The translations under genes were made by a program, and so were the position numbers. From contig CAZLEV010000024.1 in NCBI GenBank assembly GCA_964558645.1, forward strand, positions 1-39,522: a stretch of 39,522 bases of DNA, in the 5' to 3' direction. A model generated the notes under the pieces. That model was not told the origin of the DNA. It searched no databases and was given only the letters and a program-made list of their open reading frames with translations. Shown in pieces: positions 25,914 through 28,512 of the stretch; position 1 is the stretch's first letter; each line of letters starts with the position of its first letter. The stretch comes from an uncultured archaeon. GTDB taxonomy: Archaea > Asgardarchaeota > Thorarchaeia > Thorarchaeales > Thorarchaeaceae.

Positions 25914-26792
25914 CTAGTCGGTAACGACCACCGCGGACAGCATCATGCATGCTCCTATGAGCTGTACAGGCGTCAGTGATTCTCCCAGAAAGACGAAACT
26001 GAGGAACATAGCAACTGCAGACTGCAACAGAAGATAGACTGCAGAGGCTGTACCCCCGAGATGCTTCAGCCCCTCGTAGTACAGTAGGAAAGCTATACCG
26101 ATAGAGAATACGCCAAGGTAAATGATTCCTGCCCAAGTCACACTGGAAGCAGTCTGTATTCCTGATTGATTCGAGAAGATGAAGGCTGCAATACCCAGAA
26201 CGATTGCGGTATATGCGGCATTCGGAGCTGCAACCTGGAGAGGTTTCTGTGCCTGTCTCATGGCATTGTACGCAAGAACAATCCAGAGTGCCCAAACGAG
26301 TCCAGCAAACAGTGCCAGCAGCTCTCCGATGAAACCTCCTTCGACTACAGCCCCCAGATCTCCGCCTGTAGTCACAAGAACTGTCCCGAAAATGCCTATC
26401 ACAAGTGCAACGATGTTTCGATGGGACACACTCTCGCGGCCAATCAAGAATGCAAATACGGGAACTAACGCCACACCAAAGTTGACCAAGAGGCTGGCGT
26501 TGATTGCGGTTGTATAGTACAGGGCGATGTAGTTTGAGCCATAGGCCAGCCCATTAAGGATCCCCAAGACAACTAGTGCCCGATGGCCGAAGAACTCGAG
26601 TCCCTTCGAATCTGCCTCTCTGTTCTTCCAAACAAGGGCGGTTATCAGAATCAGCGCCCCTATAGAGTTCTGTAAGAAGGTGATGCCCAGAGGGTCTGCG
26701 TCCTTCACAATAACCCGCCCCACCATGAATGTGGAGCCCCAGATGACAGCCGCCATCACCATCAGTACTCTCGCTGAGTTCCTAGATTGCAT
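25914..26792 (-). CDS. DMT/EamA family transporter
   Basis: AAVIWGSTF, ALYYTTAINASLL, GELLALFAGLVWA, FLGESLT; ~10 TM. Confidence 0.92.
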   Translation of the reverse strand: MQSRNSARVLMVMAAVIWGSTFMVGRVIVKDADPLGITFLQNSIGALILITALVWKNREADSKGLEFFGHRALVVLGILNGLAYGSNYIALYYTTAINASLLVNFGVALVPVFAFLIGRESVSHRNIVALVIGIFGTVLVTTGGDLGAVVEGGFIGELLALFAGLVWALWIVLAYNAMRQAQKPLQVAAPNAAYTAIVLGIAAFIFSNQSGIQTASSVTWAGIIYLGVFSIGIAFLLYYEGLKHLGGTASAVYLLLQSAVAMFLSFVFLGESLTPVQLIGACMMLSAVVVTD

Positions 26793-26911
26793 TGGAGATC
26801 TGCCTGGCCTAGAGGTCACGAGTTCTCTACTTAACTCTGCAGGTCTTACGTTTCTAGCGATAGTGTTAAAGCGAGATTGTATGCTAGTGCGCCAGACAGG
26901 AGCTAAGCAAT

Positions 26912-27031
26912 ATGGCCAAAGAAGGAGCAACATATGTATGCGACATTTGCCAGCAGGTCATTGTCGTCAAAAAGTCAGGCGCAGGTACTCTGGTATGCTG
27001 CAATCAACCAATGCGATTGTATGAGGAGTAG
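26912..27031 (+). CDS. Desulforedoxin-like FeS4 small protein (39 aa; not in ORF track)
   Basis: MAKEGATYVCDICQQVIVVKKSGAGTLVCCNQPMRLYEE*, i.e. YxCxxC-x15-CCxxPM; SD AGGAG at 26898-26902. Confidence 0.9.
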   Translation: MAKEGATYVCDICQQVIVVKKSGAGTLVCCNQPMRLYEE

Positions 27032-27144
27032 CCCCTCCAAGTGCTATCTTCGGACACCCGCTGACATCTTTTCCTTATACAGTTGATAATCTTTATATGC
27101 TCACTAAAAGGCGAACCAATGAGCTTCTTCGAGGAGTCACTGCC

Positions 27145-27705
27145 ATGGTAGAACTTCCAAGTTATGTGGTAAAGACAAGGGAACTACTCAATCTACGCGG
27201 CTACAGAGTAGAAGAATTGAATGAATACGAAGACCGCTACGAGATGATCCCTGACCGCCAGCTAGGCGAGTACACTATCAGGATGCTGGTCTGGATTTTC
27301 AAGGAACAGAAGGTAATCGGCGTCGCTTATGTGAAAGACCTCGTCAGGGATATGGAGGAATACGAGGCATTCCAAGGCATGATTGTGGGCGGCAGTCGAT
27401 TCACTCCGGCGGCGAAGAAGCATGCTCGTGCAAATCGTGTTGAACTGGTAGAGGGCAATTACGCATCTTTTGACCTCTTCGACCATCAGCTGGTTCCAAA
27501 GCATACTGTGGCAAGCCCTGAAGAGGTAGACTTAGTCTTGGAGCACTACGGCATCGATAGGCCACAGCTCCCCCGGATTCTCAGAGATGATCCCGCTGTG
27601 AAAGTGCTGGGCGCGCGACCCGGACAAGTTGTGAGAATTGAGCGAGACAGCCCGACGGCCGGTCGAACCTACTACTATCGTCTTGTTGTTGACGCCAATC
27701 GTTAG
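27145..27705 (+). CDS. rpoH: DNA-directed RNA polymerase subunit H/Rpo5 with an RPB5-like N-terminal domain
   Basis: C-terminal HQLVPKH...QLPRI...DPAV..LGARPGQVVRIERDSPTAG...YYRLVV plus ~110 extra N-terminal aa; TTTATA at ~27092; SD GAGGAG. Confidence 0.93.
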   Translation: MVELPSYVVKTRELLNLRGYRVEELNEYEDRYEMIPDRQLGEYTIRMLVWIFKEQKVIGVAYVKDLVRDMEEYEAFQGMIVGGSRFTPAAKKHARANRVELVEGNYASFDLFDHQLVPKHTVASPEEVDLVLEHYGIDRPQLPRILRDDPAVKVLGARPGQVVRIERDSPTAGRTYYYRLVVDANR

Positions 27706-27708
27706 GCT

Positions 27709-28512
27709 CTATGTCTGGATAACTCCAAGCAAGAGGCCCGTAAGAAACATAATCGCCGTTGCGATCAGTGGCACTGTTATGTTGTCGGTTCCTTTGGGGC
27801 TGACAAGTTCAATGAGAGTGGCCGAACCTGCTCCAATGAGTGCCATTACTATCATCTCCAAGAGAAGTATCTGTCCACCGCTTACGAAGACCCCGTAGTT
27901 CTGGATACCGAAGAACCAGAATGCAATCATCGCACCAAGAAACCCGAATGCGAAGAGTGCTACGCACCCATGAAGCGACCTGTTTGAGCCGCTAATCACG
28001 CGCGTATGGTTTATACCGAATCTCATACCAACTGGTGCAGACATTCCATCTCCGAGCATCATGATGTGGATTCCTGCGGCTCCGAGAAAATACAGGCTCT
28101 CATTTCCAGTCAGCGTGAAGAATCCTGTGAGGATGGTGATGCTCACCGCGTACCAGAAGGGTCCTCTCACGCTGCCGTGTTCGAGATCTTCAGGTCGTGC
28201 CATGGCCGAGAAGAATCTCTCGAATCTCTCCGCACTGGCAAGCCAGAGGAAGACGACAAAAGTCAAGGCAACCAGGGTTGCGACCCAAGCATGGGTATAG
28301 TATGGAGTGGTCCATATAGCTGCTCCCGCAAAAAGGTGGATCACCTTCCTTGTGAAATCGGGACCCAGGTTCAACTTCCTCCGGAGGACATCGCCAGTTG
28401 TGAGGACTATCACCACATAGATCAGCGCGATGAAGTACACAATGATATCATTTAAATCAATCATGAGCTCGATTTGCACCGGAGTACCTCTCCTGGTGTC
28501 ATCCGCACTCAC
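27709..28512 (-). CDS. SEC59/DGK1/VTE5 family CTP-dependent polyprenol/diacylglycerol kinase
   Basis: TRKVIHLFAG, GPFWYA, GDGMSAPVG..FG, RSLHG, E..SPKGTDNITVP. Confidence 0.88.
   Translation of the reverse strand: MSADDTRRGTPVQIELMIDLNDIIVYFIALIYVVIVLTTGDVLRRKLNLGPDFTRKVIHLFAGAAIWTTPYYTHAWVATLVALTFVVFLWLASAERFERFFSAMARPEDLEHGSVRGPFWYAVSITILTGFFTLTGNESLYFLGAAGIHIMMLGDGMSAPVGMRFGINHTRVISGSNRSLHGCVALFAFGFLGAMIAFWFFGIQNYGVFVSGGQILLLEMIVMALIGAGSATLIELVSPKGTDNITVPLIATAIMFLTGLLLGVIQT

Follow-up and report, generated by a model that had tools for sequence, protein, structure and literature searches.

The rpoH locus

The window analysed here is a stretch of 39,522 nucleotides from the genome of an uncultured member of the Thorarchaeia, and all positions given below refer to it. 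It contains an uninterrupted open reading frame, closed by a stop codon at 27703-27705, which encodes an RpoH (Rpo5) protein of 186 amino acid residues (Table 1). An earlier note on this DNA had described a protein of that length, the last ~75 residues of which are classic RpoH. This description held: the C-terminal region matches Pfam family RNA_pol_Rpb5_C (PF01191), and over residues 108-183 it meets the NCBIfam RpoH equivalog NF007129 with 99 bits against a cut-off of 83. The reading frame is real and correctly delimited, and the Rpo5 that it encodes possesses two domains.

A second in-frame ATG at position 27097 would add 16 codons and yield a protein of 202 residues; it lies within the TATA-like element. 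The 186-residue start is favored both by the Shine-Dalgarno-like GAGGAG and by the length of the homologues, 385 of which measure ~185-188 residues, most of them sharing this start position. The last methionine before the C-terminal domain is M79, and an internal start is thus unable to give rise to a short RpoH. The promoter and leader assignments are inferred from sequence alone.

Upstream is found a divergently oriented gene for an EamA transporter, 25914-26933 (-), and downstream a membrane-protein gene in convergent orientation, 27709-28512 (-), from which we surmise that rpoH is monocistronic. The latter gene product is a multi-pass protein of 267 residues without any Pfam match at E ≤ 0.001. 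A MoCF_biosynth-domain protein is also encoded among the neighboring genes. The rpoB gene of this genome sits on a different contig (C26) from that carrying rpoH (C24), which bears out the claim in the earlier note that the gene stands alone, outside the usual rpoH-rpoB-rpoA operon.

Table 1. Features of the long-form rpoH locus (positions within the window).
Feature	Position	Strand	Remarks
TATA-like TTTATAT	27092..27098	+	~50 nt 5′ of the start codon; putative archaeal promoter element, inferred from the sequence only
GAGGAG, Shine-Dalgarno-like	27131..27136	+	8 nt before ATG 27145; read from the sequence
Long-form rpoH/rpo5 gene	27145..27705	+	186 codons plus stop; sole Rpb5_C-encoding gene of the genome
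N-terminal domain, residues 1-107	27145..27465	+	Compact PD-(D/E)XK (Mrr-type) fold without the nuclease triad; very probably homologous to the Rpb5 jaw
Center of the interdomain connection, residues 108-109	27466..27471	+	Lower confidence in the AlphaFold2 model at residues ~101-120 (pLDDT 69-73)
C-terminal RpoH/Rpb5_C assembly domain, residues 110-181	27472..27687	+	PF01191, E 5e-28; match in a search of the own genome at 27469-27687

Domain composition

Five subunits are common to all three eukaryotic nuclear RNA polymerases, Rpb5 among them. The C-terminal assembly domain of Rpb5 is universal in archaea and eukaryotes, and in solved polymerases docks on the largest subunit. Archaeal RpoH has been described as consisting of this C-terminal domain only (PMC3906176), while the jaw of Rpb5 is classed as a PD-(D/E)XK fold and the family Rpb5_N is listed as restricted to Eukaryota (PMC3424549). 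In the present protein, the C-terminal domain is most similar among PDB entries to the Rpo5 chains of Pyrococcus (E 8e-23) and Thermococcus (E 1e-21); the last 75 residues are 55-59% identical to Thermococcales Rpo5 chains, versus ~25-30% identity between the whole protein and Rpb5.

The N-terminal domain matches Pfam Mrr_cat (PF04471) across residues 12-105 with an E value of 8.7e-9 (35.9 bits, gathering score 21), and it also matches PF22722 (NA-iREase1), a model of inactive restriction endonucleases. A scan of residues 1-110 with Pfam RNA_pol_Rpb5_N (PF03871) gave no match even at E ≤ 10. The latter model is 89 positions long. On the eukaryote-type proteins that were scanned, its match stops near the strand preceding the VG block and so misses the second, best-conserved half of the jaw. 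Bona fide Rpb5 proteins, for their part, also match Mrr_cat weakly, in this same second half. The earlier note had proposed a search of residues 1-110 for Rpb5_N versus Mrr_cat; although Mrr_cat matches and Rpb5_N does not, the two are no real alternatives, since the jaw of Rpb5 also belongs to the PD-(D/E)XK fold (PMC3424549) and Rpb5 proteins show the same weak Mrr_cat similarity.

Sequence profile comparison of the N-terminal domain

To compare the N-terminal domains without any contribution from the C-terminal domain, 33 archaeal long forms were cut at residue 107 and aligned by hhalign with 21 eukaryote-type Rpb5 N-domains. The two profiles match with a probability of 98.5% and an E value of 1.6e-15 over 98 columns, the archaeal profile showing a gap of 17-25 residues opposite an insertion in the eukaryotic jaw. 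The control consisted of eight stand-alone domains matching Mrr_cat, collected from a few Asgard genomes and including one from the source genome; this is admittedly a small set. Against it, the same 33-sequence profile gave an E value of 2.8e-7 over 46 columns, which means that the match to Rpb5-N is better by approximately eight orders of magnitude and twice as long. When six archaeal subgroups were tested singly, every one scored better against Rpb5-N than against the Mrr set, the E values with Rpb5-N being 1.6e-14 for the Heimdall-like sequences, 4.6e-14 for the Borr-type, 1.8e-12 for Bathyarchaeia A, 1.2e-11 for Thor, 1.4e-9 for Jord/Frey, and 3.5e-7 for Bathyarchaeia B. The leading position of the Heimdall-like group is merely suggestive because the groups are unequal in size.

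A profile built from 18 Asgard N-domains was compared with 177,635 distinct PDB sequences. Above noise it recovered only Rpb5 chains, namely those of human (1.8e-8), Drosophila (1.9e-7), Arabidopsis (2.4e-7), and yeast (1.6e-3), and across this entire collection not one nuclease was matched. As a single sequence, the N-domain produced only noise in a phmmer search of the PDB. The full-length profile scored higher against human Rpb5 (139.7 bits) than against archaeal Rpo5 (127.8 bits), and aligned with Arabidopsis NRPB5A across profile positions 7-183.

The alignment of the N-only profile with human RPABC1 pairs IRKTIMQLCHDRGYLV with the helix-1/RGY block, and MFVFFPEEPKVGIKTIK...RALIV...MTPSAK with the strand/VGV/G-L-V/TPAAK blocks. 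Three pairs of RPB5 motifs, in the same order, had been proposed in the earlier note, and these align as stated there. Residues conserved with the archaeal relatives include R18 (RGY), G59 (VGV), and T87 and A90 (TPAAK), the blocks matching Rpb5 being RGY, VG, and TPSAK. A proline following strand 3 is likewise common to the archaeal jaw and Rpb5.

Structural models

The full-length protein was modeled using AlphaFold2 (pLDDT 89.6, pTM 0.70). A Foldseek search with this model returned Rpb5 chains as the top 30-odd matches, with query TM-scores of 0.77-0.81 and rmsd values of 2.7-4.2 Å over ~200 columns, an extent which requires that both domains superpose on Rpb5 simultaneously. Short archaeal Rpo5 chains align with the C-terminal domain only, and no nuclease ranks above position 50, where the first is encountered. 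The Rpb5-like arrangement of the two domains relative to one another is therefore a confident prediction of the model.

Modeled alone, the N-terminal domain (pLDDT 93.1) is a plain PD-(D/E)XK domain. It aligns with residues 5-136 of human Rpb5 at a Z score of 10.2, with 102 of its 107 residues matched and 21% identity; for the nucleases EndoMS/NucS and the Mrr-like AF1548, the Z scores are 10.9 and 10.5, respectively, with 11-17% identity over ~98 residues. Foldseek and VIA-align did not separate Rpb5 from true nucleases by the fold of this domain, the two being tied at Z 10.2-10.9. The bare fold cannot discriminate between them, and the decision rests instead upon the profile comparisons and upon how the two domains are arranged.

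The catalytic positions

The nuclease triad was mapped by means of an alignment between the family and a canonical Mrr-type sequence in which D...ExK is present. The corresponding positions in the 186-residue RpoH are E33, I51, and K53; they are approximate, given that the alignment used for the mapping is of low probability. Across 120 Thor homologues these positions hold V/A/E, I/V/M, and K, the acidic position of (D/E)xK being hydrophobic (I/V/M) in all 120, the first Asp not conserved, and K53 kept in 117. The equivalents in 120 Bathyarchaeia sequences are S/G/D, C, and P, and the last two positions in eukaryote-type Rpb5 are F and P. Within the limits of this mapping, none of the three groups (Thor, Bathyarchaeia, eukaryote-type) retains the D...(D/E)xK triad.

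Copy number and distribution

The source genome, which is 93% complete, possesses a single Rpb5_C gene, the long rpoH; the second, short rpoH that the earlier note had suggested looking for is absent from it. Five further genomes that were checked contain exactly one rpoH each, either long or short, which indicates that the two forms are alternatives and not coexisting paralogues. Within the same family, 40 of 43 genomes carry the N-terminal domain, as do 104 of the 201 genomes (38 of 59 genera) that were sampled across the phylum, mostly within open frames of ~190-240 residues. The long form is the standard one in Thorarchaeia and extends beyond this lineage: exact look-up assigns further examples to records named Jordarchaeales, Borrarchaeum, Heimdallarchaeota, Heimdallarchaeaceae, and Freyarchaeum deiterrae. 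The short form is carried by Odinarchaeum yellowstonii, Baldrarchaeota, and others, and in a large family recorded as "Promethearchaeota archaeon" the jaw was present in none of 40 genomes. Outside the Asgard archaea, the long form occurs in most of the Bathyarchaeia sampled and is the usual one in two of their clades, a few Bathyarchaeia having the short form; the jaw HMM matches 29 loci from named Bathyarchaeota/Bathyarchaeia genomes at 1e-22 to 1e-30. The form is special neither to this organism nor to Asgard archaea, a point on which the reading in the earlier note needs correction.

A number of variants were encountered. Several genera of Thorarchaeia carry two long-form rpoH genes in tandem, each with jaw and C-terminal domain and ~56-63% identical to one another (L046, L044, and L037; G134:C31, G087:C32, and G046:C19, respectively), the source genome having one copy. 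Acidic C-terminal tails of ~30-45 additional residues, ending in EEL, are present in two Jordarchaeales sequences (L012, L013) and one from Heimdallarchaeaceae (L027), and are lacking in the Thor and Bathyarchaeia long forms. One long form (L024; G100, family f17) contains an insertion of ~30 residues in its C-terminal domain and sits on a very long tree branch. In a metagenome representative of 561 residues (P0149) the Rpb5_C domain of a long-form RpoH is split by a segment of the Cpn60/TCP-1 family (residues 401-516, E 1.3e-13). Proteins or open frames of 378-500 residues (P0155, P0156, P0195; G148:C107 and G163:C271, family f14) have two or three jaw-like repeats followed by a partly matched Rpb5_C. 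Lastly, proteins of 313 residues labeled "CofD," which clustered with RpoH of Heimdallarchaeaceae, are real CofD, and their clustering was treated as an artefact.

Synteny with rpoB

The gene downstream of rpoH differs between the two forms. No rpoB was found 3′ of the long forms in seven of seven Asgard genomes or at any of 31 named Bathyarchaeia/Jordarchaeum loci, whereas short forms lie directly 5′ of rpoB (a frame of ~1100 residues or a split one) in four of four Asgard genomes and at about 46-47 of 49 named loci. Of the exceptions among the latter, two fall at contig ends, and the third is a locus with a downstream frame of 232 residues resembling the beginning of rpoB. Acquisition of the jaw hence coincides with departure from the operon.

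The locus last mentioned (L117; CP070659.1, Bathyarchaeota bin796) has a stop after this N-terminus-like frame, which may be due to a sequencing error or mean that rpoB is split or interrupted here. Two frames holding rpoB are unusually long, at 1624 and 1660 residues (G041:C5:205498-206613 and G012:C1:523469-524587) versus ~1120-1140 elsewhere; a fusion or insertion in Rpo2 is possible.

Annotation, literature, and phylogeny

In NCBI records the RpoH of Freyarchaeum deiterrae is 84 residues long (WXG42409.1; L014, G038) and that of an "Asgardarchaeia" MAG 82 (MEQ9714569.1; L022, G004). Other gene callers, together with a conserved in-frame jaw, give 181-206 residues for these orthologues, so that the jaw has been hidden by annotation, the start apparently being a non-ATG codon. 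Some of the Thor and Bathyarchaeia long forms are labeled "RPABC1" in JGI records. A 2026 survey of small archaeal polymerase subunits describes forms of Rpo6 and Rpo8 in Asgard archaea and Bathyarchaeota (PMC13257274); a long Rpo5 is not mentioned in the passages of it that were consulted. No report of a long archaeal Rpo5 was found in the open-access literature searched, a scope that leaves out subscription journals and supplementary tables. The form may have been overlooked in part because annotation pipelines cut the gene back to fit the model of the short RpoH.

A maximum-likelihood tree was computed by a quick search from 73 long, short, and eukaryote-type sequences, several of the "short" rows being fragments. 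It left 44 of 70 inner branches unresolved and recovered no sister group for the eukaryotes.

Interpretation

It is likely that this gene encodes the Rpo5 of the organism in a two-domain, Rpb5-like form, and that its N-terminal domain is an inactivated Mrr-type fold which shares ancestry with the Rpb5 jaw; a non-catalytic role in the lower jaw is inferred. The firmest component of this reading, and one that we consider well supported and very probably correct, is that the N-terminal domain is homologous to the eukaryotic jaw and stands in the same N-to-C arrangement. The presence of such a jaw was the central claim of the earlier note, and it is supported by the hhalign result, by the N-only profile matching solely Rpb5 in the PDB, and by the TM-scores of ~0.8 obtained on superposing the full-length model. 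Incorporation into the polymerase, the position in the jaw, and contacts with DNA or factors are reasonable inferences by analogy; they are made without any experiment or model of the complex, the only support being that the genome has no other rpoH. Extrapolating from structures of Pol I, II, and III, the domain would lie at the lower jaw, next to the channel for downstream DNA, where it may serve as a non-catalytic scaffold or as a docking surface for DNA or factors, and not as a nuclease. Transcription factors, as well as the hepatitis B virus X protein, target the jaw half of Rpb5 (PMC13257274, PMC3424549).

A bolder reading, toward which we lean only slightly, is that two-domain Rpb5 is an archaeal invention and that eukaryotes inherited the long form from an Asgard-related ancestor. 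An inactivated Mrr-type domain would have been fused to RpoH and the gene would have left the rpoH-rpoB operon, the fusion predating the divergence of Asgard archaea and Bathyarchaeia or being followed by an early transfer between them. Heimdallarchaeaceae carry the long form and theirs may be the jaw profile closest to eukaryotic Rpb5. Were this inheritance correct, Pol I, II, and III would have a lower jaw that is older than eukaryotes. As the sole rpoH of this genome encodes a homologue of the Rpb5 jaw, an element listed as confined to eukaryotes probably arose in archaea. The statement in the earlier note that this is a "precursor" of RPB5 nevertheless remains an inference, the tree leaving the archaeal sister of eukaryotic Rpb5 unresolved.

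The strongest rival is convergent fusion, in which archaea and eukaryotes each joined a different Mrr-like domain to RpoH, and the two jaws would not be orthologous. In its favor are the Pfam results (Mrr_cat and NA-iREase1, not Rpb5_N), fold scores tied with those of true nucleases, the patchy distribution among archaea, and the unresolved tree. Against it, the N-only profile matches Rpb5 and no nuclease across the PDB, and the hhalign match to Rpb5-N surpasses that to the stand-alone Mrr set by some eight orders of magnitude and is double its length; the order of the domains and the geometry between them are the same; the RGY, VG, and T-P-x-A blocks are held in common, as is the proline after strand 3; and bona fide Rpb5 also matches Mrr_cat weakly. 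We consider this explanation unlikely.

Less probable still is a transfer of Rpb5 into archaea from eukaryotes or their giant viruses, which would make the long form secondary. The "RPABC1" labels in JGI records and the occurrence of viral and eukaryote-type short-jaw forms of Rpb5 among the representatives could be taken to support it. The C-terminal domain is, however, closest to archaeal Rpo5 (Thermococcales), at roughly twice the identity that the protein overall shows to Rpb5; the archaeal jaw lacks the eukaryotic insertion; and the form is conserved over many deep Asgard families and two clades of Bathyarchaeia. We judge transfer very unlikely.

That the N-terminal domain is a working Mrr-type nuclease of defence or repair, merely sharing a polypeptide with RpoH, is suggested by the Mrr_cat score above the Pfam threshold and by the near-invariance of K53 in Thor sequences. 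It can be all but ruled out: the acidic residue of (D/E)xK is replaced by a hydrophobic one in all 120 Thor sequences and the first Asp is not conserved, the inactive-endonuclease model is matched as well, no DNA-recognition domain is present, and the neighboring genes encode a transporter, a membrane protein without Pfam match, and a MoCF_biosynth-domain protein. An artefact of gene calling, with a short rpoH lying behind an unrelated open frame or untranslated leader, as the NCBI orthologues of 82-84 residues in Freyarchaeum deiterrae and the "Asgardarchaeia" MAG might suggest, is practically excluded by the continuous frame, the conservation of the N-terminal part at the protein level in two phyla, the confident model of this domain, the Shine-Dalgarno-like motif before ATG 27145, and the lack of any ATG from codon 79 to the C-terminal domain.

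On the reading preferred here, that of a two-domain Rpo5 with a homologue of the Rpb5 jaw, the conserved archaeal long form would move the origin of this jaw into archaea, and adds a character of the polymerase core that is common to eukaryotes, many Asgard lineages, and Bathyarchaeia. Structural and genetic work also gains a simpler jaw to examine, and attention is drawn to a systematic error of annotation by which long genes are trimmed to ~84 residues.

Comparison with known systems

Among characterized proteins, three groups invite comparison. Mrr-type nucleases and their relatives (PF04471; AF1548, 1y88; EndoMS/NucS, 5gkj; MspJI, 4f0p) possess the same core fold, with Z scores of 10.5-10.9 and the Mrr_cat match above threshold. 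The N-terminal domain of RpoH differs in having no conserved D...(D/E)xK and no DNA-recognition domain, in being fused to a polymerase subunit, and in a sequence profile that favors Rpb5 over any solved nuclease. Canonical archaeal RpoH/Rpo5 (78-84 residues, solved chains 77-84; PDB 8cro_H, 4qiw_H, 2waq_H, 1hmj) shares the assembly domain, as seen in the 55-59% identity of the C-terminal 75 residues to the Thermococcales chains and in the equivalog cut-off being met; by comparison the present protein, at 186 residues, has an additional N-terminal domain of 107, and its gene is not the first of an rpoH-rpoB-rpoA cluster.

The closest counterpart is eukaryotic Rpb5 (RPABC1, POLR2E; PF03871 plus PF01191; PDB 1dzf, 8uhd_E, 7vba_E, 7eu0_E), in which a PD-(D/E)XK jaw is followed by the assembly domain in the same order. 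Profile comparison indicates that the jaws are homologous, the whole proteins superpose with TM-scores of 0.77-0.81, and the triad has been lost in both. The archaeal jaw is shorter (~107 residues versus ~135) because it is without the eukaryotic insertion of ~17-25 residues after helix 1. The archaeal protein further differs from Rpb5 in that it goes unmatched by Pfam Rpb5_N, its C-terminal domain more closely resembles archaeal Rpo5, and it serves a single polymerase.
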